This document shows, piece by piece, positions 9,813 through 63,400 of a stretch of DNA of 64,000 nucleotides. The first letter of the stretch is position 1, and the number at the start of each line of letters is the position of its first letter. The position numbers and the translations under genes are program-made. Location: the NCBI GenBank assembly GCA_036630325.1, contig CP142732.1:744001-808000 (forward strand). Reading direction: 5' to 3'. The notes below the pieces were generated by a model that was not told where the DNA came from, searched no databases, and worked only from the letters and a program-made list of their open reading frames with translations. The DNA is from Vairimorpha necatrix. Its lineage: Eukaryota.

Positions 9813-9941
9813 AATTCACCGACCATCAATTCACCGACAACAATTCACCGACAGCAATTCACCGAAAATCAATTCACCGACCAACAAATTCACCGACAAC
9901 AAATTCACCGACAACAAATTCACCGACAACAAATTCACCGA
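9813..9941 (+). repeat. subterminal tandem AATTCACCGA repeat, 9 copies (5 inverted copies at about 12020-12090)
   Basis: 14-16-bp units AATTCACCGA(CAAC/A) read directly. Confidence 0.92.
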
Positions 9942-10404
9942 AAAATCGAAATATGTATTTTTTATGGGTATATTTATGATATACATATTTAATTTAAATT
10001 TTTTTTTGTATGGATCATAAATATTGTGCAATATAGCATTTGAATATTACTATATTTATATCACTAAATAAATTAAAAAATAGAAAATGTATTAAAATGT
10101 TCATTAAAAATTAATCTGAAAAGAAAGATTATGAAACAACGCGAAAACAATTCCTCAAAATTATGACATATAATTTACTAGTATACTTGTAACATTAATG
10201 TTTTTACATTGCATTGGGGTGTAATGTTCTATCTAGACATATTTTAATAAAGTCTCATCCAATTCGATACCAAAGTGCAATGAAGGTATCCTAGGCACAA
10301 TTGGTAAGGCGCAGGTTTGCGAAGAAAGATCTATACTTTACTTAAAATGGCACAACTCTTTTTAAATATTTTAACATTTTAATTCTGAACCCCTAATTTC
10401 AATA

Positions 10405-11800
10405 ATGCAGATCGAATATTTACTCTCAGAAAAGGGGAAGAAAAAATTAATTTTAGAAGGTCATCTTTTCTTTAAAGAAAAAGATGTTTGGGAACTATCC
10501 AAAATATATTGGAAATGTGAATACTATCAAAAGTACAAGTGCAAGTGTAGAGTGATTACAATGTCTAATGGGGAAATTAAAGTGTTTGGCGAACACAACA
10601 ATTCGGGAGATGCTGCTAAAGTCGAAGCCGATAAAATATATGCTAATGTTCGAGCCTTGGCAAAAAGCTCTAGAGAAGCGCCACAATCTATTATATCAGA
10701 TTGTTTATCTCTTTGCAGCCATGCTGCAGCTCCAAAATTGCCATCGATTGACAATATGAAGCGTAGCGTTCGGTATATTCGACAAATTGCAGAAACTAGC
10801 CCCGCACTCCTAAATTCGCGGCAAGAAATTACATTCACAGACGAATTCAAATAAACGACAAGAGGGGAACCCTTTTTGCTATATGATTCTGGACCAGATG
10901 AAAACAGAATTTTAATTTTTTCGACGACTCACAATTTACGGCTTTTGGCAGATCGTCAACACTGGTACGCAGATGGCACCTTTAAAACCGTACCATTATT
11001 ATTTCATCAACTGTACACAATTCACGGGCTAAAACAAAGTGCTTCTATTCCCTTGGTCTTCGCTTTATTGCCAAATAAATTAGAGCAAACGTATTCTAAA
11101 TTTCTTTGCACTTTAAAAGAGTTGGAACCATCATACAATCCGCAATCCATAACTGTAGATTTTGAAAAAGCCATGATGAATGCTATTTCAGTACAGTTTC
11201 CTGGTGCAAGTGTAAAAGGATGCTTTTTTCATTTCTCACAGTGCATTTTCGAGCCGTTCAAAATCATGGACTCAAACTACTGTACAATACAGATCCAGAA
11301 TTTGCACTGCAAATAAGATCGCTGGCCGCCATAGCATTTGTACCTTCCAATTTTGTTGTTGAAGTTTTTGAAGAATTGTCTGACAGAATACTGCCCATCG
11401 AAGCTCTGCCCGTCTTAGATTATTTTAAAGATACTTGGATTGGCCGCCCAAACCGAAGACAGCGTCGAGCCCCGAAATTTGCATCAGAGATATGGAATAT
11501 GTACTCCAGAACAATAGATGGTCTACCGAGGACTAACAACTCGGTCGAAGGTTGGCATCGTGGGTTCGAGTTGCAAGCTGGTGGCACTCACCTGAATATT
11601 TGGAAGTTTATCAATTGCTTAAAAAAGGAACAATCTCTAAATGAAGTTCGAATAGAACAATTTTTGTCTGGTTTTAATGCTCCTACATCTAAAAAAAATA
11701 TCGCGATTGTAGAACGAGACTTCTAAATATAGTGTCCAATTTTAATCGATAAAATATTAAAAAATATATTCGTGCCATTGCCCATAATCTGACATTTTAA
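10405..11800 (+). pseudogene. FLYWCH-MULE transposase with an in-frame stop (10852-10854) and frameshifts (about 11245 and 11695)
   Basis: IYWKC..CKCRV..GEHN FLYWCH; WYADGTFK, FHQLYTIH, ITVDFEKAM, GCFFHF, RTNNSVEGWH. Confidence 0.9.
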
Positions 11801-14800
11801 TAATAAATTATTAGATTTTTATGTTTTCTATTATTTTTAATTAGTTTTTTATGTTTATGATCATTTTGATACTTTTTCTATTTTTTAATTTATTTAGTGA
11901 TATAAATATAGTAATATTCAAATGCTATATTGCACAATATTTATGATCCATACAAAAAAAAATTTAAATTAAATATGTATATCATAAATATACCCATAAA
12001 AAATACATATTTCAATTTTTCGGTGAATTTGTTGTCGGTGAATTTGTTGTCGGTGAATTTGTTGGTCGGTGAATTGATTTTCGGTGAATTCTCCGGACAC
12101 CAGTCATTTTAGTGTTCTAAATGTTACCTTTTTCAGAAAGACTTCAAAATCAGCTCATCTTTATAATGTTGGCGACAATTAGTAACTACAATGCCCACTT
12201 ATCCACATACGTAAAAAAACCATACTTTAATTCATATACAGAAGCTGCTTATTCTCTACTAAATATTATACTATTGCTTTTTTTGTTTGCATTATTCTTA
12301 GCTATTAAAATCAATACTTTTAATATCTAAAATGCATTATTTATTTTGTTGACTAAGTGTACAGGGTCTTATTGTATTATACTTTGAGTGCACTCCAAAC
12401 CTCTTTTCTACTCTAAGCTGTACGTCTTTTTAACATACATGTTTTAACTTTAAGTTTTCCTTTCTTGTTTGCTTGCAATTGCATCGTTTTTGTATAAATA
12501 CATTATAAAAGTTCGTCATGCCACACATATAAACATGTTATTTGTTTCCATCGATCTGTATTGCCATGTTGTTGATTGTCATTGATCTTTTATACATTTG
12601 GAACATTTCCTATTTTTTTCTATAAAGATGTTACTATATCGCAGAGTACGCAGGCCGGTATTTTCTGTAGGTTGGATATTAACATTTATAAGTATATTAA
12701 CTAACCAATAACAAAAATTAAACATTTTAAAGTTATAATGAGTCTCATATACTTATGTTTGTTCAATTTATAATATATTGTAATATTTTTGGCGTTTACA
12801 AGATTTACTGTGATTCATTTTATTGCTTATATGTACAATTCAAGGGATTATTGATCTTAAAAAGGTGTGCATTACGATAAAAAACTGGCTATACTATACT
12901 CCTTCTCCTTAATTTGGATTTTTTTTGCTGTCTAAATATGTAAACAGTTGTAATAACCCATTTTACCTTCTAAACTTTTTATTGTTATCTTATTTTTGGT
13001 GTATACGTAATCTTTGCAGACACATTACTGGTGTGTGGTAGTTGTATGGATATTTAATCTTTTAGTTTTACCTTTTTTATTCCATGACATAATTCTTATG
13101 ATCCCTACTAATAGTTATGCCGTGATATGCTTTATACATGTACCCTCATTATATTGTCTATATAATTACGTATTGTATTGTACTGCCGCTTAATTGAGGT
13201 ATAATTTATAAACATTTAAAATTAAATCCAATTAAGTTTAGACTTAATACAATTTTTTTAATAGCAAGATTTATAAGGATTCCACAAAAGTGTTATTAAA
13301 TCATAACAACGATAATTATTTGTCTTTAAAACTTCACAGACGTAAAACAAATAAACCTTCTAATTGACATTTTAATAAGTTGTATGAATCAAATATTATT
13401 TAACAACGTTTTTACTAGAAAATAGTGCATTGCATGGGTTAACAGAAGGTACATAATGCAAGTTACAATTATCGCCTTATATTCCTTTATCATCAAAATA
13501 TCTTCAACATTTGAGTTTTTCTTTATCCCGAGATATGTTAATATTATCTTTTTATATATTGCAACTATAAAATGCAATAAATAAGTTTAATAAATTTAAT
13601 TTTGTGCCAAAAATTTAAGGTATTGAAATTATATTATATATTTTTAGTACTTTATAAGATGTGGAACAAGATACTGTAGTAATTAATTATATAAAATTAA
13701 ATCTAGAAAAATATTTCAATCAAAAAAATCTCGAGCACGAATGGTACACGTTAATGATGCATCTAGTACAAACCTTTATAAGTATTTTAATTTATATTGA
13801 AAATTTTGCAGTTGATAATACGAAAGGCATAAAAATCTTATATTGATCTATGTATTATAGTACGAGCTAAATATTATGTATGCTTTGAAGTCTTAAATGC
13901 ATTTATTTCATATAAACTGATAAATAAAAAAATAAAATGTTCAGTATTAAAAAGAGAGGTAGATATAATATTCAAAAAAAATCTTTTTTATGTAGAAATA
14001 ATCTCTAATACAGTTAATGTCGCTATATATCAGATCTAATAATTTTTATGTGATCAGACAAAGATGTTGTGTAATTTTAAAATATTTTGATTGTAATTCA
14101 GGATGTACGGTATTATTTAAAATTTCATTTTTTTAAACCGAACAGACACAAAGACACAAGACCCAAAAATTACTTTAAGGATTGATGTCATACACGTGGT
14201 TTAATAGAATTTATTTTGCATGAATAGATTAGCAAACTTCCATCACTATATATCTTTATATTTAATATTGCGTCATATTGGGCCGATATTCTCCAAAAAT
14301 TCATCAATAAAGACTTAGATTCCTGTTTTTAACTTTATCATAACAGAAATAAAGGATGTCATAGGACTGGTTTTCATGTTTACATTTACAACACAAAACC
14401 AATGTTGAATTTAAATTTTATACGAATGCCTTCTGTATGAAAAACTAATAAATTATAAAAATATGAAAATTTTGTTACATTAACATAAATATATATATTT
14501 GTCAGACTTCCAAATAATTTATTTATTATATTCTTTAAAAATAAATTATATACAAAAATTGTGATCATACTATTCAAATCTAAATTTATAAAAATATGAA
14601 ATTTTTTTACTGTATGTTTAATCCATTTAATTATTTTAAAAATTTTGCAAAAAATTATGGTTTCAATTAATGATTATAAATACTCTATACAACAGCAAAT
14701 AGACTATTTTAAATTTTTTTTTTACAGAAAAAATTTATTGTATATTTTTAATATCATTAGTAAAACGTAAATTTTCCCAAATTAACTTTTATAGCAACAA

Positions 14801-17747
14801 GAAAAGTTCCCAAGATAATAAATTATTTCGTTTTTTTAATTTAAAATTAAATATTATAATTAAACAATTTCTGACCCCAAGATATACAATTAATATAAAT
14901 TAGTAATGAAATTTGAACGAATGATACATAACGTCTTAATTTTTTTTATAGATTATGTATTGGGAATCTTCTAAACTTTGCATATGAATCGTCTGTACCA
15001 TGATAAAAAAAATAACAAAACAAATTTATTACAGTATTCTTGATAGTGTAAATTTTTAATAAAAGTAACCCCAATTGGCCAAAAGAAAAGAACAAAAAGA
15101 AAAAAAGAAACTACTAGGAAAGATATTAAACCTGATTTTTCATGTGATGCTCAAAAAAAGTTCCGACTACAGAATGCGTAGTGGTAAAAAGAAGGCCATC
15201 CACAAATTTTTATATTCTCTTGATACTCAAACGCGAACTTTATATGCTACATTGATTTGTTTAAATTTTATATTTCATAAAAATGATCTCATTAAACTGA
15301 ATAATGTCTATCAAAGCACTCAAGTATTTTATGGAAGAAGCCGAAAGCTAGAAGTTTAGAAAAAAAATTTAAATTAAGATTACATAGTTATAATCGAGGA
15401 TAAAATATATTTTTGGGATAACTTATAATCCCTTTTGATTATACCTTACAGTATAACGATATGATTCGAGTTCTAACATTTTCCCATTCGGGTTTTTTGA
15501 TTTTGCACATTCCTTTACTTCGGTCTCTTCTTATATCATTCAGCAATAAAATTTTCATCTTTTTTAAATATTTAGTACTATGATAAATTGTAAAACCATA
15601 TTCTAGATAATAATAATTTTTTCGATATAATTTCTAATAATTTTTTTAGGTATATTAACATGTATTATATTAATGTTGGGTTGTAAACTCTTAACCCTTA
15701 TAAATTACATAAAAAATCGCCAATTTTCTTACATTTAAAAAGCGATAAAAAAATACTATTTTACATGTCTAATAATATTTTTGCTATCTCTTTCTAGATA
15801 TCAAATAAATTATATAAAAATATAATTCATAATCACAATAAAATTTTCATACTTTAAATCTTAGGAGGACCAAAAACTTTAAACTTTCAATGATATAGAT
15901 AATACAACTCAGATTATATATATAATTAAGTTAAGATAAAATTAGTTTAATGAATCTTGTTTTGTCCAACCAAAAGAAACTAGCTCCAATTGTAGGAACT
16001 CACCTTAAGGTAAAAAACAACATCTCTTTTGTAGTGACTTAATGCTACATAATAGAATGGGGGGGGGGTTCAGTCTAGAGCGAGTCCTTTGTTGGTGCAG
16101 TCTGAGTGGGATCTTGAGCTAACTAAGATCAAACGAAGTAGAGGAGTATTAAAGAACTCGTGTTCTATCAATCATGGTTTTTGACATAGCGGGCCAAACT
16201 GTTGGAAGAAAGTTAAACGCAGTCCAATAAAACCCCGGGATAATGTTGTGGCGCGGTAAGAAGCCGAATGTGCAATGCAGATTATTGTAATGTCTTTGTT
16301 CTGATACGACGATGTATTTCCCCGAAACGCCTCATGGCCGTTAAGTGTATCCTTTGGAAGGATCTTCTAGACGCCATTAGAGGTATAAATAAAAAAAATC
16401 TTCTGCAGTCAAGGTCTAGTGTATGGCAGAGAATGCTGCACCCGCAAGTTACATTTGTAAGTTTTGGTAAATAAGAATCTTACTGTATCGTTGAAAAAGT
16501 ATTACATTTATCCCTATGATTCCACGTAGGTTCTCTTTACATCTTACTTTAAAAAAGCACTTTTAAATTTAAATCACTATAATGCTTTTAAAATCTACAC
16601 ATTTAAACTACAACAAAATATGAAAAAAATGTAGTGGTGTGATTTATCCAAAGATGTATAGACGATGGTGTTATTATTTACATTTCATTTTGACATAGTG
16701 TAAAAATCAATAGATATACATTGTACTAACATTTTGTTGGTAATTCTATATTGTGACCGGAGCATCACAAAAAAACAAGTAAAATTATTTGAAGAAAGAT
16801 GTTTCATTACATAACTGGTAAAGCTTTGAACATAGTTAACTTGATTAAAATTAAAGAATTTAAAAGCGGAAATTAGTTTATGCTGTAAAATTTTTATAAA
16901 AAAACTGGAATCATAAAACAACAAAATTCCTCAAATGAGACGAACATAGTCTGTCATTAAATATGATTTATTTTATTTGTTTGTATGCCATTCATTGGTG
17001 ATTTTATTATTTTTATCATTGTATCGATCTCAAATGTGACAAATATTACCGCAAGTTGATTAAATTTGTAATTTTGCTCTGTAGTTTTTGTGCTTCAAAA
17101 TGCATTCGCTTTTGATTTTTTAAAGTGTTACAAAATGAAAAGTGCTTCTTTTTAAAGGACCAATTAGAATTCAGAAAGAACATTTTATTTGTTGCACGGC
17201 AATTTACAAAATTTTAGAAAATATAAATCATCTTGTAATCCGAAATTCCACAAATTAAATCTACTATAAAACGTTGAAATTAAAATTTAAGTAATGACAT
17301 TTTACATTTCTTATAATATAGAAGAACAAAAATATTTTGTGATGGAATATTTCATGTCGCAAGCCACATTTGCGTAAAAGAGGATAAGACAAACTAATTT
17401 AATTGTTTTTTATCAGTGTTCATGATAGTCGTTTTTATCAGACGTATTTCCTTTTTAATATTTAAGTTAAAAATTGTTAAAAAATCAAATTTTATCAGCT
17501 GAGCAATAAACAAAGCCCTATGAATAGTAAGAATTTTAAAATTGGTGTATTTTTGAACAGATTGTAAATATGTCAACTTTGATAATTTGTATATATATAT
17601 CGATAAATATGAAATTTAAATAATTTACTAGTTTGGGGAAACACGGATATTCACTATAATTCTGCGACTTGAAGCGGAATAGTTCCGATATAGCCATACA
17701 AAAGAAATTAGTTATTAGGGGTATAATAAAAAAATAAAAATAGCCCC

Positions 17748-18251
17748 ATGAATTTTATATATCTACTGCTTCAAAATATATCAACAACAAAAAACGGAGA
17801 AAACAAAAACGGTATTAATAAACTTTTTCTAAATGGCACACTCGATTTAGTAACTTCTGAAAATTCGGAAAAGCATTTTAATGAGTTTTGTCGGGGAAAA
17901 AATTTGAAAAATGGATGGCTATTAAATGAATTTGATTATAGTGAAAAGACGAAAATTAGCTTACAGAAAAAAAAGAAATATGCCACGAATACTACTGCAA
18001 AAAATTCTCAGGATGTAACTATAAATGTACCATGTACTAATGAGAATAATACAGACGAGGATACTTTTTTAGAAACAGTTTCCAATTCAACAAAAATATC
18101 GACAAATAAAGAACACAACAAATGTATTTGTTTAGTTGGTTTTTGTTTAGAAAATAGTTTACTGGGTACTTTTTTGGGTATTATAATAGTTTTTCTGATT
18201 CTTGTTCTTCTTATTTATAATTTTCCTCAATTGTTTACTAAAGAGAAATAA
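17748..18251 (+). CDS. orphan signal-peptide plus C-terminal TM protein, family member 1
   Basis: CCCC-ATG; short hydrophobic N-terminus MNFIYLLLQNISTT; C-terminal TM LLGTFLGIIIVFLILVLLIY; similarity to members 2 and 3. Confidence 0.8.
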   Translation: MNFIYLLLQNISTTKNGENKNGINKLFLNGTLDLVTSENSEKHFNEFCRGKNLKNGWLLNEFDYSEKTKISLQKKKKYATNTTAKNSQDVTINVPCTNENNTDEDTFLETVSNSTKISTNKEHNKCICLVGFCLENSLLGTFLGIIIVFLILVLLIYNFPQLFTKEK

Positions 18252-20812: not shown

Positions 20813-22984
20813 TATTTTTTTTTCAAAGTTTAAAAGAGTAAATTAATTTTTTTTGGTTCTTAAGAAAATATTTTTAAATAAATTTACTTCTTGTAAAATC
20901 TAACAAGATATGTTCTATATAAGCATATCATTTTTTATAGCTAACAATGTTTTGATCCTTACATCACCATGTGTAAAAGATCACGCTCAAGGAAATTGAT
21001 GCGATTTTACAACAATCAAAACTTGGTAGAAAAGCTAAATTTATGTAGCAAAACATAAAATTCAATTTAAAAGATTGTCAGCCTTATTTTGTATATAGAA
21101 ACCTTATATTTTAAAAACACAATAACATCAAAAAAAAATTAGATATCGATCAAGTTAGAATTTTTATTTGCAAAATATCATCAATTAATAAAAAAGTAGT
21201 TAATTACAAAGATTTTGATTAATATAATATGATATCACTATTGATAAACATAGATAGATTTAAATAAAAATATTTGTACGTCATTTACTTAATATAATTT
21301 TTATAATTATTTCATGAAATGATTTTTTACAAATAACTAGAATACTTATTATATTTACGGACCAAAATTCTACTATTAAAACAGTAAGAAATCCAAAAAA
21401 TAAATTTAAATCATATTTCCAATAGATTACAGATAGAAATATTATAAGTTCATAAATCGATATTTAGACGTTAAAATGTCTTTATTTAGTGTGTATTATC
21501 ATAATTGTGCCTTATGTGTTAACTTTAGGTAGTGTAGTATCAAAGTATCCCGATGTACACCGAAGAAGGAGTAATATACAATGCAATATTAATGTTTTAA
21601 CAGCTATAATCTGAAAATACACATAATCGTTATTCTTTATATGTATAAAACATCGATAATGGTATAAATAGCAGGATAGTAGTACTTTAATACTGGAACG
21701 AAAGGTCAGAAAACAAGTGTCAAGTTAAAAAAAATAATGTTCAATAAATACTTTTTTTTCAAAAGTAATTTTTCTGCAATGTACTTTGTAAAAGTTTTAT
21801 GTGATCGAAGTAAATTTTTTTTTGGAAAGTCTTGCAAATGTAAAGTAAATAATCGTTGGTCATTCAACTTCAAAAACAATTCTTTAATGTTGTCATTTGT
21901 CAATTTTAACTCAAACCTACTAAATAAACAATATGTTAATATATCTCTGAATATTTTACTGTGCAGAAATCGTTTCTAATAGTAATAAAAGTGTTATTCT
22001 TTGACATGATTTGTTTAAAACATAATTAATTAAAAATTGTTACAATTTTATGTGCCGTGCGAATATATATAGTGTTATAAAATGTTTTATTGCGCAGTTT
22101 AATTGATTTAAATATAATATATTTTGAGTAAAAACGTGTTTGAAATTATTAAATAGTTCAGATAAAATTAATGATAAATTACTTAGATTGAAAATTATGG
22201 ACAAAAGTAAACAAAATTATAGTCCCAGAAATGCTCTATGATATAATATAAACTATTTAAATATACGCAATAACGTGGCATTATACCCATCTATCATGTA
22301 TAAGTACAATCTTTTGTTTCGAAAGTTAGGAACATTATCGAAAAATTAACTTGAATATAGAGTACCCAAAATTACTTTCATTATATACCGTATCAAAGAG
22401 TCGTCGTTATTTTAAGTTTTGTGATTATTTTTTTGATTAATTATTTTGTATAATATATTTAATAGCTATCATAAAGCTTTGTGTATTTATAATAAGGCAA
22501 TGTATTATGGAAAATTATGATATGCTATTAGAGAAATAATATTTAGCACAAATTTAATTTACTTTATTAGTTACAAGATACGATAGTTTTATAATTTGTA
22601 CTTAAGGTCTTAATTGTCATTTAAAATAATTAAAAGTTCATTAAAACATGTAAATTCTTAATCAAATACATTTCGACTGTTGCTTTTTAATTTTTATCAT
22701 TACGAGAAAAAATTATTTCTAATACTTGCATGGAATCTTGTACAAGAGAGCCTCAACCTCCTTTTTATAGATTTAGAAAAAGGGAAGTATTACAGTAAGC
22801 ATGCGTTATAACATATATCTGTAAAATTTTCATGAGTTATAATATTTGAAAAGATAAAATTTAATTTAATTTAATAATGATCAGTGAATATAAATTGCTC
22901 TGTTTGTACGATACTTCATACAATAAAAATAAATTACTACTAATATGTATTTTTTTTTGTAAACAACATTGTAATTATGCCCCT

Positions 22985-23482
22985 ATGATTTTTTTACATC
23001 TCTTATTATGTCTTATTTCAGCAACAAAACACGAAGAAGACAACGACAGTCAAATGATACAGAGCATTTATGGTCATTCTAATTTAGTTACTATCGATCC
23101 TTCAGAAATGCATTCCGACGAACATTATCAAGAAAAAAAAGCTGGACATTTAAAGTTTTTAAATAAAAAAAACCTAAAAGAAGAGGTGGAAATTTGTTCA
23201 AAGGAAAAAAATAACTCATCAGTGTTTACTGCCGACAATTCTTTTAAAGAGGTAAAAATTCCTTTTTCTTGTACTGATAAAAATAATATTATAAAGACTT
23301 CTATGTTCGAACCGATTTACAAGCCAACAACAATACCAAAAGATACAAACGAAAAGAAAAGTCTGTATTTACTAAGTTTTTACGAAGATAATAAGAAAAT
23401 GATTATTTTTTTAGTCCTTTTATTAGTATTTCTATTTATTACAGTATTAGGATTTGTTGTGGTCTTAATTAAATATCTCTAA
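22985..23482 (+). CDS. orphan signal-peptide plus C-terminal TM protein, family member 2
   Basis: CCCT-ATG at 22985 (preferred over the ORF-track start 22877); MIFLHLLLCLISAT; HSNLVTIDP..HYQEKKA; YKPTTI; C-terminal TM. Confidence 0.85.
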   Translation: MIFLHLLLCLISATKHEEDNDSQMIQSIYGHSNLVTIDPSEMHSDEHYQEKKAGHLKFLNKKNLKEEVEICSKEKNNSSVFTADNSFKEVKIPFSCTDKNNIIKTSMFEPIYKPTTIPKDTNEKKSLYLLSFYEDNKKMIIFLVLLLVFLFITVLGFVVVLIKYL

Positions 23483-26722: not shown

Positions 26723-27244
26723 TTAATAAGCCGAATATTATACCCAAATAAATTATATAATATATATATATATATAACGTAAAGAGTATTTAAAAAAAAA
26801 CATTTTAATAGACTTTATATCATTTAGACAAATTCATAGCTAAGTATAATACTAAAATAGAAGTTAAAACGTCTGATAAAACTCTTTAACTATAAAAAAT
26901 AATAAATACAATAAACTTGAAAAATGAAACAAAAAATTAAAAACTCAAGGCTGTAGTATGATTTTCGTCTAGATATTACACAAAATTGTCCCAATCTTTT
27001 TTTATTTATTCACCTGTTAAATCAAAAAGACTACAGATATCATAATCTAAGTTTATTAAACATCTTTAAGTGGTTTTTAAATTCAAATAATATTATATGA
27101 TACAACACTGTAAATCTTGTAGATATGGACAAGTTTATATATAAAAATTTATTAATACAAATATTAAAGACAATTTGAAAGTGTTAACAAGACAAGTAAA
27201 ATCAAAAATTCATTTAGACCCATGACCTAAAGTAATCAAAAGGA

Positions 27245-28077
27245 GGAGGTGGGGTACTTTAGACCCCCCCTTTGAAGCGCTTCAATTTTTTTTTCGAACC
27301 CCAAAATTGAAGTGCAAAAAAAAAAGAGGAGCAAGAAAGGGACAAAATTTCTTATCACTTTAAACATTAAAAATACAAAATAAATATATATTTATGTACA
27401 CAATTATATTTTAATACAAGTTTTTACAATAATATAAACCAATAATCTAATTTTGCCCTTCTGATTTTTTAGAATTGGGGACAAAAACGCTCCCCTCTGA
27501 GAGTGTTCACTTTATAATTTTGAACCCCAAAAACGAAGTGCAAAATAAAGGAGAAGCAATCATTAGTACTCAAATTACTTGCATCTTCAAACAGTAAAAA
27601 TACCAAATAAATATATATTTGTATACGAAATTTAATTTAAAAAAAGATTATAACCATAAAACTATATAATTCTTTATAACTTAACATATTTAAATTAAAT
27701 TTTTTGATTTAACAATATGTGTAGATCGTTGAACATTTATTTAAATTTTCTTTTATAAATAATATTTATAATTTTAATTGTTGGTTTATTATTAAAGTAG
27801 ATTTTCTTCAAAAATCTACTTTAATAATAAACCAACAATTAAAAAAAATTGAAAAAATAAGAAGGGCGAAAAAGACACAATACTTCAAATGATTATTATA
27901 ACTAAATCTAAAATTAATTTTTGTATAAAAACATATATTTATTTGTTATTTTTAATGTTTAAAGTGATAAGAAATTTTTGTCCCTTTCTTGCTCCTCTTT
28001 TTTTTTGCACTTCAATTTTGGGGTTCGAAAAAAAAATTGAAGCGCTTCAAAGGGGGGGTCTAAAGTATCCTTCACCC
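27245..28077. mobile_element. Merlin-derived MITE, 833 bp
   Basis: About 140-bp TIRs with GG..CC termini; 9-bp TSD TCAAAAGGA (27236-27244, 28078-28086); TIR core shared with the Merlin at 32146-35490; no transposase. Confidence 0.9.
27772..27844. repeat. perfect 34-bp inverted repeat with a 5-nt loop
   Basis: TTTTAATTGTTGGTTTATTATTAAAGTAGATTTT-CTTCA-AAAATCTACTTTAATAATAAACCAACAATTAAAA. Confidence 0.95.
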
Positions 28078-28396
28078 TCAAAAGGATTATTATTTTTGAG
28101 TTCTATATTTTGTTGTTATTTATGTGTTATAACTACAATATAAAATCAATACTTTTACTAGCGAAGTATAGTGTAAAATAAAATGTCATTATTCTCAAAT
28201 ATAAATTTAAAAAAGCGTTTAAAAATATGAATTCTGATAAAATAAATTAAGTTCTATCAATCAAAACATAAAACGGATGAGTTAAATGATTGAATTTTTA
28301 TATTTATTAGTAAATTGATAATCAACTTTATTTAACTAATAAACAAATTAAATTAAGTTATATTGAATCTTTATGTAAAAAAAAAATATTGCCCCT

Positions 28397-28882
28397 ATGA
28401 TTTTTTTACCTCTTATTTTAGATTCTATTTCTACAACAGAATCCGAAAAAGACAACAAAAATGTAAATAAAATTACTCTTGATAGTCATTCTAATATAGT
28501 TACTATCAATCCATTGGAAGTTCATTTTACAGAGCATTTTCAAGAAAAAAAAGCAAAACAATTGAGGTTTAAAGTTGAAAAGGTCTCCGAAGAAATATTA
28601 AATAATTCTTCTCAGGAAAAATTAATGTCTCCTGTTTTTAATATTACAAATAATTCTGTTGACTCAAAGATTAATTTTTCACACACCGATGAAAATATTA
28701 TGGAAGAGATTGATATGTATGAAGCAGTATACAGACCAACAACAATATTAAAAACTAAAAACAAAAAAAAATGCATTGAAATACTAAGTTTTTTCAGAAA
28801 AAATAGGAGAATTGTTATTTTTTTGAGTCTTTTGTTGGTTATAATTTTAGGTATTGTTATAATATCAATAAAATTTCTTTAA
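28397..28882 (+). CDS. orphan signal-peptide plus C-terminal TM protein, family member 3
   Basis: CCCCT-ATG; MIFLPLILDSISTT; HSNIVTINP..HFQEKKA; YRPTTI; RKNRR followed by TM; clear paralogue of member 2. Confidence 0.85.
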   Translation: MIFLPLILDSISTTESEKDNKNVNKITLDSHSNIVTINPLEVHFTEHFQEKKAKQLRFKVEKVSEEILNNSSQEKLMSPVFNITNNSVDSKINFSHTDENIMEEIDMYEAVYRPTTILKTKNKKKCIEILSFFRKNRRIVIFLSLLLVIILGIVIISIKFL

Positions 28883-32130: not shown

Positions 32131-32238
32131 TTAGGATATAGTGTTGGGGTGGGCTACAGCAGACCCCCGCCCCTTAAGGATGTTCACTTTAATTTCGAAC
32201 CTCAAAATTGAAGTGCAAAAAAAGGAGGAGGAGCTTGC

Positions 32239-34330
32239 TGTGATGTACATTGCTACATCACATGAACAGATGTCAAATATGTCATCTGTCACTGATGTCC
32301 AAAGACATGTCAAGCATTTCAGTTACATGTCAAGATGAGTCACACAAACAAACAAACAAACGAAAGTTGCATGGTCGTTACTACATTCGTAAGTACGCCA
32401 ATGTTTGTAGTTTAGTGTTGACAAGAATCTTTAAATTAAAAATAAACTATAAAAGAAAGTCTGTCTGTGAAGGGCATGGAATATATAGAATCCAAGAGAG
32501 AGACTAAAACCATCAATGAACATATTTACATTAAAAACTATTTAGAGAGATATTATAAAAATGGCCATGTACCCCGGATACATGACATAATTGAATTCAA
32601 TTCCCACAAAGTATCAAAAGGGGACAACAACGCAGTAATTAAAGAAGCGTTAGAATTTAAGTATACGATCGAAGAGATCGATTTAGAAGTTAAAAAGAAC
32701 TTAAGCATAATAAAAAACATAAAAGAATTTAATGAAATGGAGCTAGATACATGGTTTGAGGATTTCAACCAAATCAGCAGAAATAAAAAATGGGATTTTA
32801 AAAAAGAAAAAATCGCCTTAGGAGAATTAGTGCGAGATCCCACATTGCAACAAATATTTGGATTACCAGATTTAAAAAAAATAAGAAGATATATTGAAAA
32901 AAATGTAAGTCAAAGATCAAGTCCTGAGATGCTACATTTAAAGCTACAGGCATGTAAACAAATTAATTTCAGATACATTAAAGAATATTTGTTTGAAATA
33001 AAGAATCTAGTAGATCAGTATGCTAGACTAGAAAACTTAACGAGAAAAGAATACGAAAGAAAGTTAAGAGAGAGTTTTTTCTTGGGATTAGGTTTTTCCA
33101 CTCGTCTTAAGATATTAGAGCTTGGAAAAAATAACGTCGAAGAAACTATGACGTATTTAGAAACAGTGGAAGAGTGTTTGATTTTTGAAGGAAAAAGGCG
33201 TGAAAAAACATATGAATCAGTTCATAATGATAGATTCAAGTTTGAGACCGAAAAGGACGGTTACAAGAACAATAAATGGTGCCGCCTCCATAAAAACAGT
33301 ACGCACAATACAGAGGATTGCTTTAGACTAAACAATACCTCAGAGCAGCTTAAGAAAAATTTAGAAAACATAAAAATGCCGAATATTGTTCCAGAAAAAT
33401 TATTTACAATTAGAGAAATAAAGAAAAATAACATACCAGAAGAGGTAGTATTTAATAGAGAAAATAAAGTCGAGAACATTAAAATAAAAAATCAAGAAGT
33501 AACTAATAAAGAAAATTCAAAAGAAGTGAAAACAAAACATGAAACATCGAAAAATGATGAAATAATAGCGAAAACGCTTAGTCATGAGAAACTACAGAAT
33601 GTAGTTGGAACAAATATATTAAAAGAGAAGGATTTAATTGTCAAAAGAAATACAGATATTGACAAGAAGCTTAACAATCCGATGAAAAATATAGAAAAAG
33701 AAAATAAAAAAGATGATAATAAAAGAAATCGAGGTAATAAATTAATAAAAATAAAATACCGTGATAAATATAAACAAAAGAAGACATATAAAATAAGAAA
33801 GAAAAAAAATGAAATATTAGAAAGTATAAACACGAAGAATAAGCAAAAAATGTTAAGTAGTGTTATAGATAAAGCAATAGTAGACCCGCCGAATATAATA
33901 TCTAAACATGAAGGGTGGTCAGCAACATGCAACAATGAATGGAGAACTTTAAAAAATTTAAAGCTTTAGGAGAGGGCAGAATGTGATGTACATTGCTACA
34001 TCACATGAACAGATGTCAAATATATCATCTGTCACTGATGTCCAAAGACATGTCAAGCATTTCAGTTACATGTCAAGATGAGTCACACAAACAAACAAAC
34101 AAACGAAAGTTGCATGGTCGTTACTACATTCGTAAGTACGCCAATGTTTGTAGTTTAGTGTTGACAAGAATCTTTAAATTAAAAATAAACTATAAAAGAA
34201 AGTCTGTCTGTGAAGGGCATGGAATATATAGAATCCAAGAGAGAGACTAAAACCATCAATAAACATATTTACATTAAAAACTATTTAGAGAGATATTATA
34301 AAAATGGCCATGTACCCCGGATACATGACA
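32239..34330 (+). mobile_element. non-autonomous gag-only LTR element, 2092 bp, 349-bp LTRs
   Basis: LTRs 32239-32587 and 33982-34330 (TG..CA, 2 mismatches); 5-bp TSD CTTGC; PPT AGGAGAGGGCAGAA; single ORF with no RT or integrase core. Confidence 0.93.
32476..33969 (+). CDS. Gag-like protein with a CHHC zinc-knuckle variant
   Basis: Open 497-codon ORF starting at GGGC-ATG inside the 5' LTR; capsid-like helical region (ELDTWFEDF, KLRESFFLGL); KWCRLHKNSTHNTEDC. Confidence 0.8.
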   Translation: MEYIESKRETKTINEHIYIKNYLERYYKNGHVPRIHDIIEFNSHKVSKGDNNAVIKEALEFKYTIEEIDLEVKKNLSIIKNIKEFNEMELDTWFEDFNQISRNKKWDFKKEKIALGELVRDPTLQQIFGLPDLKKIRRYIEKNVSQRSSPEMLHLKLQACKQINFRYIKEYLFEIKNLVDQYARLENLTRKEYERKLRESFFLGLGFSTRLKILELGKNNVEETMTYLETVEECLIFEGKRREKTYESVHNDRFKFETEKDGYKNNKWCRLHKNSTHNTEDCFRLNNTSEQLKKNLENIKMPNIVPEKLFTIREIKKNNIPEEVVFNRENKVENIKIKNQEVTNKENSKEVKTKHETSKNDEIIAKTLSHEKLQNVVGTNILKEKDLIVKRNTDIDKKLNNPMKNIEKENKKDDNKRNRGNKLIKIKYRDKYKQKKTYKIRKKKNEILESINTKNKQKMLSSVIDKAIVDPPNIISKHEGWSATCNNEWRTLKNLKL

Positions 34331-37143
34331 CTTGCACTAGCACTCAATTTACTTATTCCTTTTTATATTAAAATTACAAAATAAAATCTTTACATGGCCT
34401 AACAATAAATTTTAAACCAAGATTAAGAAATAAAAACGTTCTACTTATAATTTTAACCATATAAAAATTAGTAATTAAATACGGATTTTTATATATAACC
34501 CTTTAAAAACGACAGAATTCTACGAGAAAGTTAAGAAATAATAAAGAAAATGATTTTATATACTTTAAAATCAAAGTTTTGTCAAATATGCTACGGGAAC
34601 TTAAAACGACGTTTTTAAATACAAAATCAAATGAGATGTACAACAAAAAGTTTCAGAAAAATAGTAATGATAACAAAAAATAATTTAAATGGCTAAATTG
34701 CCTTAACTGATAATTTGCAGGTCATGTTTCTTTTTGTTAAAAATACAGCAATAAAAACAATTAAAAAATATATAGTCTCATAAAAAAACAATTTATAGAC
34801 TTATCAGAAAATTTGGCAATCACATAATTGGTAATAAAACTATTGGAGGACCAGGTAAAATTGTAGAAATCGACAAACTAAATTCGGAAAGAGAAAAAAC
34901 AACAAAGGCCACAAGAAGGTGGCGTATGGGTACTTAGGATGATGGAAAGGACGACGGAACGAGGCTTAGTCTTACTCAAAAATTAAAATAGAAAGGCCGT
35001 GACTCTCGAAAGATATATAAATATTATGTACATACCGGAAGTATCATACATACTGATTATTGGAGAGGGTGTATAAATTTAAATTAATATGTTATATAAA
35101 CATAATACTGTTAACCATTCCCTTGGTTTTATAAATCCAGGGAATGGTGTTCATACCAACACGATCGAAGGAACATGGGCTGGTGTAAAAAGAGTGATTC
35201 ATGCCAGATGTAAGACTGAAAAAGGTGTAAATCTATTTTAATTTGTTTACATTTAAAAGAAATAATTTTAAGAAAAACCTTCGAAAATATAAAAAAAGTA
35301 CATTTTCTTGTATATTTCTTGAGTTATTTTAAATTTATAGGAATTTCGTTTTATTTTGTATTTTTAATGTTAAAAGTTCTAAGATATTTTTGTTTGTTTC
35401 TTGCTCCTCCTTTTTTTGCACTTCAATTTTAGTGTTCGAAAAAATAATGTGAACATCCCCAAAGAGATAGGGTCTGTGGAATCCTCATCCTCGATGATAT
35501 TAACTCGTAAAATGACACTAAGAATTCAAAAAAAAACTAAAAGCGAGAAATACGAATTTTTTTTTGCGTCTCTGTAAAAAAAATTAACAACGATGTTTGT
35601 TGTTTTTTGATGATTATCAGATTTATCGTGTGTTTCTATCGTCATTATGATAATGTTAATGAGGAATCCAATAATCTTAATTAAAGAGGATTTATCATTT
35701 TTAATTTTTAATAGACATATATTATATAATTAATTTCTATTGTATAAAACTAAAGATATGTTGTTTAGTTCAAACATTTTTATAAACAATGAACAATTAT
35801 GTATGTGGACACATGGATGTGTTGAATGCTATTTATCGCTAGAACTATAATAATAATCAATGACAATGAAATGTTTACGTCTATATTAAATTAAGAACAC
35901 ATAAAATTACACTCGGGAATTGTTAAACGCTGAACATGGAAGTTGATGCAAAAAGACAATATTCCGAAACGCTGCTAAAATAAAAAAAAACATATAATCT
36001 TATGCTTACAATTTAAATATAAAAAAATTAGATATTACGTTCAATATATCACTTAAAGAAATTTATAAAATTTTATCGATATGTTCTAAAAGAAAATTAA
36101 ATTAAATGTTTTTAGCGACGAAATTAATTAGAACCGCGAGCAGAAATTGTTATTATATAATGCATTTGATAGCCTCTACGTAAAAATAACATAAACTGGA
36201 TATTCATTGTAAATTATATTTTTAATTATATTATTAAATCATAAACAAACAGTTAAAGATTATAAATTATGTTTATTGTTTGACAACATTATTAAAAGTT
36301 TTAAAAGGCTTATATATTCAAAATTTGCTCTTAAATACATTTATTTATTTTTTAAGGTTTCATTTAGAATTATATATACATATATATATAGTATAAATTT
36401 TTATCGCAAGTAACAAAGCTTAAATACAAATGAGAATTATAGAGAAAACATCAGAATGCACTTTCTTAGAACACCGGCAGGGACAGGCCGAGAGAAAATC
36501 TGAAACCAAGAACATAGTATAGGTGATTAAAAGGTAATGGGACCAAATAGAGTGCGCGTTAGTGGGGGGTTCTTATAAAAAAACCTAATTATGGTTTCTT
36601 AAATAAATAATTTTTTTGCAAATTCTTATAACATGAAAATTATTTATGACAAGAAAAAAATATAATCAATAAATTTATTATTGTAATTTTAGGTATTTAT
36701 ATCAATAAATGTATATTGTGACGTTATTAGTTTGGCATATTGATTCATAAATAATATTTTTAAGTCTAATACGAAACATTTAAAAGAAAATTTATAGAAT
36801 TCTTAATCCATTCTATCTTACTGAAGAAGATAGCAAAGTATAAACTTTTGATCGAAGACGAGTATACGACCAAAACAATACTGGAGTAAAAATGGATAGA
36901 GCTGTCAGTACATCGGCTTGTAAAGTAGGTGCTGAAAATGGCTTGTTAGTAAAAGAATCTAAAGATCAATTGAATAAAATGAATATATAAAATTAGGTTT
37001 CTGATTGTATAGAGCAAAATTGCTTGCAAACACCTAGAATTTATGTGCTAGCAAAAACTGATTTGAAAATTAACAAATATTTATATCTTCTGTAGTCTTT
37101 GTATTTTTTAATCATTTTCGCAATTTTTATGATAAATTAAGAT

Positions 37144-40485: not shown

Positions 40486-41294
40486 AAGATAATAACAAAA
40501 ACAGGCGAGAAAGATCGATAGAAGTGTTTTTCACTCGCATATAATTAGCGTTTGAAAACATAATAAAAAAATAATATCCATTTGATTAAATAAAAAGGAT
40601 ATATACATTTCTTTTTTATCAAGTGATGATAAAATTTTTGCTTGCGAATTTGCGAAAAAATAATATTATTATACCAGTTTATTATTGTGCAATTTTACAA
40701 CTCTATAAAACTTTTTTTAAAATTAGTTTTATACTGAATTGGTGTTTGCTCCGTGATTACATATAACGTGTATATCTAAAGTTTTAAATCAATACATGAG
40801 AAATTGAAGTTGCTTTTTGACAGCACTGGAAATTGATTACAGGGACATTTATTCGTTCTTATAATTTCAGCATTGCATACAAACACACTTCTATCCAGCG
40901 CTGAAATTTGGTCACGGTTATCTATAGTTCGAATTAGTCAATGTTTAAATATCGTGGATTTTAAATTATCTATAATAAATTCATTGGGTTTATAAAAAAT
41001 AACTCTTTAATTATGTAGTCACGAGAGAAAATACTTATAATATTTTCGACAAAATATTTTAATCTATATACGTAATATTATTATGATTAATTGAAAATAA
41101 ATATCAAAAATCATACGTCAGTTAAAAGGGTATAAGTGTGCATTATATATATTCTATCAATTTTGTAAATCTTTATATGTTTTTAATAAAATAAAATATC
41201 CAAAGAAAATATTATAATGGTAGGTTTTTCCCATTAAAATTCTCAAATGTAAACATATATAAAAAGTATTAATAAAAATTAAAAAATTACCCTT

Positions 41295-41756
41295 ATGAGT
41301 TTTTTATGTCTATTAATACAAAGTATCCTAACAACAGAAGTCGAAGAATGTAACAATAACAAAAATACGCATCTTCTAGATGATAAGTTTGATGTTTCAA
41401 CTGCTGAAAAAACGAATATAGATCCTGATGATAGTAGACAAGAAAAAGAAATAGGACAATCTAGGGTTGTAAACGGAGCTGCACAAATTTCAATTGAGGA
41501 AACGATTTTGCAGAAAAGAAATAATATCGACGAAAACAATTGTAAAGGCGTATTGGTTAATTTCTACAATAAAAAGAATTATATTGAGACCAGTCCTTTA
41601 TTGAAAACCGAATACAAGAAAAAAAAGATAAACAAACAACGTCGTCGCTTCACAAAATTTTTATACGGGAATTATGGGCTTACAGTCATTGTTCTAATAA
41701 TTTTTGGTACGTTTGTAGCTGGTATGTTTTCTGGAATATATATTATGCAAATTTAA
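41295..41756 (+). CDS. orphan signal-peptide plus C-terminal TM protein, divergent family member 4
   Basis: CCCTT-ATG; MSFLCLLIQSILTT; basic patch followed by TM; same size, strand and layout as members 1-3, with weak sequence similarity. Confidence 0.72.
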   Translation: MSFLCLLIQSILTTEVEECNNNKNTHLLDDKFDVSTAEKTNIDPDDSRQEKEIGQSRVVNGAAQISIEETILQKRNNIDENNCKGVLVNFYNKKNYIETSPLLKTEYKKKKINKQRRRFTKFLYGNYGLTVIVLIIFGTFVAGMFSGIYIMQI

Positions 41757-60414: not shown

Positions 60415-63400
60415 TGTCACAGTTCGGAGTGGACGCCAAGGGTAAAAAATTAAAAAATTTCTTCAGTGATGGGCGAACCAGAAAATAAGAACAAATAAAT
60501 GTTCGTCAAAAATGATTGCTCAAATTTTGTCTCGATTTTTTGAGGGGTAAATTTTTGCTATTTTTACAGGGTTTTGCATTTTTTTAGTCCAACTTTTGCA
60601 TTTTTTAGTCCAACTTTTGCATTTCTATAGTCCAACTTTTGCATTTCTATAGTCCAACTTTTGAATTTTTATAGTTCAACTTTTGAAAAAAAATAACAAA
60701 AAACCCCGAATTTGATACAATGAACAATCAATAGAATTATGTGTAAATAATATACAACCTCATTTAATTAGATAAACTCGTTTTTCTGCCTTGCCATTTC
60801 TAGCCATCTTGCCATATTAGTGTAGAATCCATTACACGAAAGGCTAAAATCATTGTTCAGCACTTGCTCCAAATCTGTTTATACTGTATTATTTGAGTTT
60901 CGTATAGCAAAAAACCTCGATTTTATCATAGAAAAAAAATTCTTCAATAGGATTAAGTTGTGGGGAATATGGAGGCAAAAAAACATAAGATATGCCTAAT
61001 TCTCTTAGCTTATCCAAAACTTCTCTTGAATGATGAAATTTAGCATTACCATTATTAAAATTTTTTGAGGATTTGTTTGGAAAAAATCTACAAGATGCCT
61101 TTCAATAAATTCGACGAATAGAGCAGAACTATATGCGCCCCTTTTCATTTAGTATGCTATAATATTCGATTTTGAAATCACGCAAAGACAACTTAAATTT
61201 TTGCCTCGATTTGCGGGGACTGTTTTAAATGCTTTTTTCTTTTTATAAGAAAACCCATAATGCCTTGTGGTATGGACATTAAATCCAGTTTCGTCTAAAA
61301 AAAATCAAATTTTCTAGTGAATATCCTGATATTTCCATGGCATATTCAGCTCTTTTATCAATTTTGTCTTGAGAATTACGCTCTGCAGGAATTAGAGACA
61401 ACCTTTATCTTGTAATATTGAGATATTTCAACTTTCGAGAAATAGTAGACAAAGACATTAAACATTTGCTAAAGTATTTAGTTCTTCTTTGATTTCACTA
61501 AGAGTCTTGTCATTACTACGTGCAATTATGTTTTTTAGCACAAGGTCGGATGGCTTTAATACTCTAGGAGATGATACTTTGATACGATTTATTGTACTTG
61601 TAGAACAAATGGATTCTCCCTTACACTTTTCCTATGTATCCTCCAAACTGTTTTATAACTTAAATCTAATGTAGTAGCTATATCTTTTAATGTCAAGTTT
61701 TGTTTTTTATATGTTTTCAAATAAGTTTTAAGACATCTAGAGTGACTGTAGATCTTGGTTTTCTGGGCATTAGGGGATTTTTTTTCAAAAAAAAGGCCTT
61801 TGGAAATAAAAAAAAATGGACTATAAAAATGCAAAAGTTGGAGTATAAAAATGCAAAAGTTGGACTATAGAAATGCAAAAGCCGACTAAAAATGCAAACC
61901 CCTGTAAAATAATGGGAGGGAATAATGAAAAAACAGAAAAATAAAATAAACAGAATTTTCAGTACTTTATTCATTACCAAACAACCTTAAATCTCAAGTA
62001 CGTATTTCTTCTAATAAAATTCCATACATCTTCTCTGCATAATTTTACTTTATTAAATTGTATTATGTCTGTTACAAGATATACATCTGCATCTAAATGT
62101 TCATAAAGAGAATGTCTTCGGGTATTAACGTTATAACCAAAAAGTGTCTTGTAATATGTTTATCTCCTATTTTAAATTTTAAGAAATAAGTTATCCACAT
62201 ACTTCTTTGTACCATTCTATCTGTAGCAATTTGTGTATGAATTCTAGCTGCATCATGATGAATTTCATTTAAAAAAAGGTTTGTGTTATTAAGAACATAT
62301 ACTTGTTGTATTTCTTTATTGGTATTGCAATCTAGAACATCTGATAAACTTTCTTCAGAGCGTTCTTCGTCCTCACACTCTTGTCGTGATTTTTGCTATT
62401 AATCGATTCTAGACTCGTCCATTATGTCCCTAATGGGCCTACCAAACATCAGAGAGAATGGTGTTTTTCTCGTAGTAGAGTGTCTTAAATTATAATAAGA
62501 CTAGGTAACTTCTTCTCATACTTTGGTCCATTGACCCAAAATATTTTTTGTCCCGAGAGTAGATGCAATCATCCACTTTATTGTTTGATTGCATCGTTCT
62601 ATTGGTCCTTGTATCCATGGACATCTAGCTCTCCCCTTATATGTCATATTTCATATTTCTGACATAAATCGACAAGTGTTTGATTTGCAATTTCTCTGCC
62701 GTTATCAGTATGAAAAATATAACAAGAACCAAATGTTCTAAACAATGTTTCAAAGGCATTCCCTACACTAATACCTGTTTTGTCAAGCAAGTAATGTCCA
62801 ACAAAATTTGGTAAAAGAATCTACAATATTCAAAAACCATTTATATACTTCATTGAGTTCGTGATATAGCCGGAAATCAATCAAGTCTGGAACATATCTT
62901 TCCCCTTGGATACTTTGCTACGATTGGTTTAATAACTGGTCTAGTTACTAGATCTCTCTTTATATGACATATATCACAGCTATTCAAGACCCTCTGGATA
63001 TCTTTTTGTGTTGCGTCGTAGATTTTTGTTTGCAATAATGGAAACAATCTGTACCGTCCCGCATGCTCATACGAGACGTGGATTAATTTTATATAATCGA
63101 TTTTGAATCGTTGTTGTACATGGTAAAGAATCTTAATGATCTATATAGGCCTACTTTAAATCTCACCGTGAGCTCTGTGGTACCGTCAATTACATCCTCA
63201 AAAAGGATAAATTTTTGTGCTTTTTTTCTGAAAGCATCTTTTTCTTGTTTTTCTACAAACCTTGTTGGAACAATACCAGCCTGTAAAAAGACAAAAACTT
63301 CTTGTCTTTCATTGTTATTTAATTTTATATGCCCTTGAAATTAAAGAAATTTTAAATACAAATTACAAATAAACAACAATTTTTTTTTAATTTTTTACCC

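Follow-up and report, generated by a model that had tools for sequence, protein, structure and literature searches.

Introduction

TR-GAG elements are long terminal repeat (LTR) retrotransposons described in plants (Chaparro et al. 2015, PMC4350172). They are shorter than 4 kb and have TG..CA LTRs, a 5-bp target site duplication (TSD), a polypurine tract (PPT) and several copies with different TSDs; their one open reading frame (ORF) holds Gag and a knuckle, with no protease, reverse transcriptase (RT), RNase H or integrase domain. Why non-autonomous LTR elements retain gag is left open there. Here we describe an element that shares all of these features, found in the microsporidian Vairimorpha necatrix at positions 32239-34330 (2092 bp, TSD CTTGC on both sides) of what we call the window, the whole 64,000-nucleotide stretch that was analysed (GenBank assembly GCA_036630325.1, contig CP142732.1, forward-strand positions 744,001 to 808,000). 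The element is probably an LTR retrotransposon of the Ty3/gypsy group with TR-GAG architecture that has moved recently and is not autonomous; it would provide its own Gag in cis, borrow Pol and be translated as far as the PPT.

The window element has no intact cognate helper in the assembly, as was also the case for coffee TR-GAG1 (PMC4350172). It is unlike the plant elements described there in its microsporidian host, in having a palindrome in place of the tRNA primer-binding site (PBS), in an ATG inside the LTR, in a CHHC rather than a C2HC knuckle, and in an ORF that reaches the PPT through a decayed integrase end apparently held open by selection. No TGG, the mark by which a tRNA PBS was judged here, follows the 5' LTR. 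With every structural feature of TR-GAG except the tRNA PBS, the element works like a TR-GAG and is classed as a variant of it.

Mouse IAP 1-delta-1, an endogenous retrovirus, requires Gag and Pol in trans and is tRNA-primed. Like the window element it is non-autonomous and carries an in-frame internal deletion that creates a gag-pol fusion ORF; this ORF is reported to be cis-acting, and the deleted form to be more active than its full-length relatives (PMC6466679, PMC7411935). Unlike IAP 1-delta-1, the window element keeps the whole capsid and knuckle. Its parent lineage resembles the microsporidian Ty3/gypsy elements with a single gag-pol polyprotein in the order protease, RT, RNase H, integrase (Parisot et al. 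2014, PMC4202319), which are divided there into three groups; PBS, primer and non-autonomous forms go unmentioned in the text searched. The closest published feature to the palindrome is the Conserved Hairpin Site of the fungal GalEa Ty1/copia elements, where a palindrome directly after the 5' LTR likewise replaces the tRNA PBS (Donnart et al. 2017, PMC5445492). The GalEa site is a 10-nt palindrome of a copia element with a complementary partner 12-41 nt downstream, whereas here the element is gypsy and the palindrome measures 12-14 nt, is protein-coding and occurs as 11 cores. Tf1-type self-priming elements also lack a tRNA primer site, but they are defined by a PBS complement of at least 10 nt in the 5' LTR (PMC6317226, PMC5445492), against a longest match of 5 nt in the window element. 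A domesticated Gag restriction factor is fixed at a single locus and immobile, unlike this multicopy, young family with its solo LTRs. Our literature search, which covered few subscription journals and did not extend to Repbase, turned up no description of microsporidian LTR elements that carry Gag alone.

Results

A multiplied family of Gag-only elements

The 15.0-Mb assembly (12 contigs) was searched with the family's DNA, giving at least 49 matches with 40 of 137 candidates scored; the family counts are therefore lower bounds. Eleven of the 30 loci fetched (at least 11 in the genome) are complete two-LTR copies, each with a perfect 5-bp TSD of its own, 1370-1394 bp between the LTRs and no more than three LTR mismatches (0-3). 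The ORF runs intact from the LTR ATG to the PPT in seven of them. Solo LTRs with perfect TSDs account for 13 of the 16 single-LTR loci examined, and L012, L014 and L101 are older, decayed copies. The single DNA run examined has coverage of the window element, though not of its flanks. A first-pass annotation, made from the letters of the window, had proposed a mobile, non-autonomous element that borrows Pol, and had called for a search for copies of the same internal structure with different TSDs, a single post-insertion deletion being the outcome that would speak against it. One such deletion as the origin is ruled out by the 11 copies with their own TSDs, and the Gag-only state has multiplied in the genome. 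These independent insertions, together with the capsid fold of Gag, support the proposal, which is the best reading.

The same annotation had described the structure correctly as regards the 349-bp LTRs with two mismatches (which lie at LTR positions 43 and 280), the TSD at both ends, the single ORF that starts in the 5' LTR and stops where the PPT begins, the knuckle and the Lys/Asn-rich tail (Table 1). The LTR's final 112 bases begin with the first ATG, which has GGG a little upstream; the frame from stop to stop spans 32446-33969 (507 amino acids). Lys makes up 21% of the tail and Asn 14%, and the tail's net charge is +23. The insertion in the window lies within the terminal repeat of a Merlin/IS1595-type DNA transposon that has decayed.

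Table 1. Features of the Gag-only element, in window positions
Feature	Position	Strand	Basis or remark
Left TSD, CTTGC	32234..32238	+	
5' LTR, 349 bp, TG..CA; first ~37 Gag codons in its final 112 bp	32239..32587	+	
Single ORF, 497 amino acids counted from first ATG	32476..33969	+	start codon inferred
Perfect 14-nt palindrome at PBS position, doubling as Gag codons	32589..32602	+	
Two-lobed Gag capsid domain, model residues 32-218	32650..33210	+	AlphaFold2 pLDDT 79, VIA-align, ESM Atlas 0.94
C-x2-H-x4-H-x4-C knuckle CRLHKNSTHNTEDC	33280..33321	+	zinc binding inferred
Basic Lys/Asn-rich tail, 215 amino acids, without protease	33322..33966	+	frame open, amino-acid change near-neutral
Tail segment common to a second Gag-only family (other LTR, other Gag)	33699..33905	+	68% DNA, 41% protein
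Integrase 3' end kept from parent family	33930..33966	+	weaker protein similarity ~75 amino acids further upstream
PPT; ORF stop codon is its first three bases	33967..33981	+	
3' LTR, 349 bp	33982..34330	+	2 differences from 5' LTR
Right TSD, CTTGC	34331..34335	+	

The encoded protein

Judged by its predicted fold, which resembles Arc, Copia and PNMA capsids, the encoded protein is a true Gag; the first-pass annotation had staked its reading on such a fold. The AlphaFold2 model, from a 28-sequence alignment, has a mean predicted local distance difference test (pLDDT) score of 78.9 and a predicted template modelling (pTM) score of 0.47. All of the first 33 rows returned by VIA-align are Gag-type capsids, the first unrelated row having a Z score of 5.2. 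The best match is the C-lobe of dArc2 (Z 9.8, root-mean-square deviation 2.7 over 84 residues), and others include Copia (Z 9.6), PEG10, MOAP1, PNMA2 and the Ty1 Gag C-terminal domain (CTD) restriction factor; Foldseek places the same capsid families on top. ESM Atlas features indicate Retrotrans_gag and Ty3_capsid (0.93-0.94), and Pfam Retrotrans_gag is matched by 12 of the 28 relatives. A profile search of the sequences of solved structures returned chance matches alone, and a word-based homolog search found nothing. In all 12 family copies only Gag was matched, with no protease, RT, RNase H or integrase core.

The first Cys, second His and last Cys of the knuckle are invariant in the 28 relatives. 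As a special trait, the CHHC knuckle is ruled out by its presence in 101 of 150 distant Gag relatives and in the TGG-primed elements L132, L135 and L137. Neither the knuckle, nor the LTR ATG, nor the absent PBS is special to the element, because autonomous relatives have them too.

Descent from a gag-pol family

The first-pass annotation had noticed that the protein ends like an integrase, and this resemblance is one of descent. Three 4.36-kb gag-pol elements (L061, L062 and L080; LTR identity 91-97.5%) have the same LTR ends and PPT as the window element. Over Gag the DNA is 67% identical to theirs, and identity rises to 83-90% in the ~52 nt that adjoin the 3' LTR and encode the integrase end; their integrases terminate NNEW....NLKL. 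The pol order is protease, RT, RNase H, integrase, as in Ty3/gypsy. A fourth relative, the truncated L013, shows 82-86% identity over LTR and gag and runs on into pol. Of the 31 full-length members of the wider clade that were read, 16 have an intact ORF; in these autonomous elements it is a single frame of 1237-1316 amino acids. The window family thus descends from a compact single-ORF gag-pol family by an internal deletion that took out protease, RT, RNase H and the integrase core and joined Gag, in one frame, to what is left of a decayed integrase end. A search with the family's integrase region (all 19 candidates scored) yielded no additional full copy. Autonomous relatives with the same LTR, which the annotation had suggested looking for, do exist, but solely as broken, diverged copies.

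Of ten Gag relatives looked up, five have a named source, the species being Nosema granulosis, Vairimorpha apis and Dictyocoela muelleri. Two gag-pol proteins of microsporidian type (P0016 and P0018) are labelled as belonging to bacterial metagenome-assembled genomes (Bacilli, Aeromonas), probably through contamination of those bins.

Selection on capsid and tail

Selection was measured by counting methods. Among the seven youngest copies, capsid residues 70-250 differ by 11 synonymous and 8 replacement changes, against 105 synonymous and 435 replacement sites (P=2e-4); with L008 added, the counts are 23 and 16 (P=7e-8). By these counts, purifying selection acts on the capsid in the youngest seven copies. 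That the element supplies its own capsid, as the first-pass annotation put it, would follow from this selection. The tail of the same seven copies shows 3 synonymous and 14 replacement changes (ratio 1.0).

The frame of the tail is another matter. Between the window copy and L009, a neutral model expects 6.1 stops and none is observed (P~0.002), with three of three indels being multiples of three. Comparisons of the window copy with L008, L009 and L010 give 4-7 stops expected and none observed (P 0.014-0.0006), again with all indels multiples of three. In the second Gag-only family, 8-9 stops are expected and none observed in six of six pairs, with compensated frameshifts. In both families the pairs share history and so are not independent, and the model is simple and site-independent. 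The test took open ORFs among young insertions, leaving aside the tail-broken L004 and L011. These comparisons indicate that the amino acids of the tail evolve neutrally while its frame stays open. The tail is cleaner evidence than the capsid because it is found in Gag-only copies alone.

A palindrome in place of the primer-binding site

The first-pass annotation had remarked that no TGG follows the 5' LTR; the palindrome of Table 1, which it had missed, stands there instead. Among 82 two-LTR elements read, a perfect palindrome of at least 12 nt follows the 5' LTR in 68 of the 69 without TGG, in none of the 13 with TGG and in none of the 82 flanks 3' of the 3' LTR, against a background of 59 in 18,118 windows. 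Many of the 68 elements are copies within the same families, and their palindromes fall into 11 distinct 12-mer cores, with letters changing in matched pairs. Absence of a tRNA PBS is therefore a clade-wide trait. Cores are common to several families. Tf1-type self-priming is ruled out, the longest 5'-LTR complement being 5-7 nt in all eight elements tested. 'Selgy' does not denote a self-priming gypsy clade; it is a Selaginella clade (PMC6317226).

For the window palindrome, a self-duplex is calculated at -13.6 kcal/mol versus -0.9 for a hairpin. Heteroduplexes reach -10.6 to -12.9 kcal/mol with six relatives, and -4.3 to -6.0 with three that have other cores. The palindrome might thus pair two RNAs and so replace the tRNA primer. 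In one predicted fold of the window RNA, half of the palindrome pairs with a downstream stretch, a candidate for a GalEa-like partner. In L090:1359-3961 and L110 the palindromes grow to 26 and 24 nt, reaching into the LTR end.

Other pol-less families, mosaics and exchanged tails

Pol-less forms occur in seven lineages: Gag-only in three, Gag-protease in one and Gag-protease-integrase in three. Six of the seven group with full-length families in a Gag tree of 36 of 63 sequences, from which 27 near-duplicate rows and capsid-broken elements such as L107 were left out; the Gag-protease family is linked to L107 by DNA. In each of the three Gag-only lineages, intact ORFs end on the PPT or close to it. 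The Gag-only families beside the window's own are L068 and L073 (1.67 kb), and L094, L099, L100, L146, L143 and L085 (about 2.0 kb). Three further copies of the second Gag-only family lie outside those read.

A tail segment of ~200 bp is common to the window element and L068/L073 (68-72% DNA, 41-49% protein identity); the LTR and Gag of the latter come from another parent, itself without the segment. L101 combines window-family ends with an L068-like tail, and L009 is a mosaic of an L008 capsid and an L011 tail. Between the window copy and L010/L011, synonymous divergence (dS) exceeds 2 in the capsid and is 0.3-0.5 in the tail. Such exchanges fit template switching between co-packaged RNAs, with gene conversion at the DNA level as an alternative. 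L094 and L099 have the same capsid and tails at dS 0.7.

The Gag-protease-integrase elements have one ORF (791 amino acids when intact) from which RT and RNase H are cleanly gone, and are young and multicopy in their three lineages (L070:1554-4423, L071:1367-4180, L072, L074, L075, L090, L092, L089, L093 and L097, the last without protease too). The Gag-protease elements, also young and multicopy, encode 651 amino acids in 2.3 kb (L063:1587-3916, L064-L067, L069, L081, L086 and L088); three copies have a CCHC in place of the CHHC knuckle, and the first 1.5 kb of L067 is 96% identical to full-length L107. Gag relatives without protease and with long low-complexity tails are found in other sources (P0013, which is Vairimorpha apis EQB61505, P0087 and P0094) and are candidates for Gag-only elements beyond this genome; P0013 has one extra residue in its knuckle and a Lys-rich tail. 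On its sequence, the Vairimorpha apis protein suggests that Gag-only elements are more widespread. Genomic-context scans for Gag-plus-tail proteins of other species found no locus.

Other features of the window

The decayed Merlin/IS1595-type transposon interrupted by the element spans 32148-35476, and its ends resemble those of an inverted-repeat element at 27243-28079. Another DNA transposon (9856-12090) carries a transposase-like ORF with a broken frame, and its inverted repeats are long (237 nt, 94%). The inverted arms of an element at 60554-61898 are 21-22-nt tandem repeats. Four small ORFs among the transposons (17730-18251, 22865-23482, 28379-28882 and 41283-41756) share a layout of N-terminal hydrophobic leader and C-terminal membrane anchor, and possibly form a lineage-specific surface-protein family. 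A proteasome beta-1 gene in the window matches PDB chain 8adn_N, from a microsporidian proteasome, over all 216 residues (E 2e-142; next best 2e-53).

Discussion

We favour the following account of the window element. Its RNA would start inside the 5' LTR and be translated from the LTR ATG to the PPT, and the Gag so made would bind and package the same RNA in cis. Gag-Pol would enter these particles as well, coming from an autonomous member of the palindrome-bearing clade to which the element itself belongs. Mouse IAP 1-delta-1 sets a precedent for a fusion ORF, born of an in-frame deletion, that acts in cis. Selection would act on translation through the tail, the sequence of which would hardly matter; the benefit could be that a long 3' untranslated region would trigger decay, or that a basic tail helps to hold the RNA. 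Shared palindrome cores might, in addition, let parasite and helper RNAs co-package, and mosaics would be the consequence.

Several observations weigh against this account. Taken alone, the window protein has no significant match in Pfam and none at E<=0.001 in Foldseek. Four of the 11 two-LTR copies have broken ORFs (L003, L004 and L010 are frameshifted, and L011 stops 19 codons early), and the L003 frameshift is found in both LTRs, so this copy integrated already broken. Many of the synonymous differences in the capsid lie in tracts shared with L008/L009, which are recombination imports, and Gag tracks helper lineages (L013 is 86% identical, and L010/L011 group with L080), so that helpers may be the source of some of the purifying signal. 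The genome has a UPF1-like gene (L147, G000:C9:803330, an 864-amino-acid open frame above the Pfam cut-off), but microsporidia are without the SMG1 complex (PMC5709506), and UPF1 alone does not show a working nonsense-mediated decay. Finally, L061, L062, L080 and L013 are all broken, leaving no intact helper with these ends in the assembly, and the 16 intact full-length members of the clade agree with the window element at only 6-13 of 20 bases in the PPT and, at best, at 8 of the 12 terminal bases. Because of this, the helper is either of a different family or absent from the assembly.

The broken copies, the evident Gag swaps with helper lineages and the clustering of synonymous differences in imported tracts would all suit a passive passenger, mobile but with a Gag useless to itself, helpers supplying all proteins and template switching refreshing the capsid. 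Such refreshment could not reach the tail, which occurs in Gag-only elements alone and whose frame, in two independent families, has survived 0.2-0.46 substitutions per site, and the imported tracts match other Gag-only copies; we regard this explanation as unlikely. The bipartite explanation is a partly cooperative system in which Gag-only elements give bulk capsid to a clade whose single ORFs make Gag and Pol 1:1, and the Gag-protease(-integrase) elements give other parts. Consistent with it are the single ORFs of the intact autonomous members, the recurrence of all three kinds of pol-less element and the palindrome cores common across families. Single-ORF Ty3/gypsy elements such as Tf1, however, have other routes to Gag excess, the survey of derivatives took in no tRNA-primed single-ORF elements of the genome, and a selfish benefit in cis accounts more simply for the same pattern, so that we hold a bipartite system to be quite unlikely.

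Least probable is a restriction or copy-number-control factor, an alternative to which the first-pass annotation had pointed with its Gag acting as a restriction factor; here the protein made of Gag and tail would poison helper capsids and be retained because the host gains from it. We found no positive support for it. The element is dispersed, polymorphic in sequence and often reduced to solo LTRs; it is not fixed at one locus, spreads and recombines like a selfish element, and its window copy lies within the terminal repeat of a dead Merlin-type transposon. Gag-derived restriction factors do exist, the Ty1 Gag CTD factor being among the fold matches, and every cognate pol-bearing copy is broken and of greater age than the young Gag-only copies, but a defective-interfering parasite, too, would deplete its helper.

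Returning to the non-autonomous element with its own Gag, a broader scheme can be built on it, which we put forward as doubtful. The gypsy clade would prime reverse transcription by palindrome RNA dimers, and shared cores would lead to co-packaging across families and hence to a guild of partial elements (Gag-only, Gag-protease and Gag-protease-integrase) whose survival beyond their parents would rest on changes of helper and on the exchange of LTR-Gag cassettes around a portable tail that is translated through.

As to why non-autonomous LTR elements retain gag, this genome constitutes a natural test: Gag-only elements form three independent lineages, and in every one of them the capsid is conserved and the tail is conserved in frame and not in sequence. 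That combination suggests that translation of the entire RNA pays off in cis. The window family is young, yet the assembly holds only dead cognate helpers for it, which implies mobilisation across families or a helper on an unassembled haplotype. The findings extend the TR-GAG architecture to a reduced intracellular parasite, in one genome of which the pol-less design arose several times.

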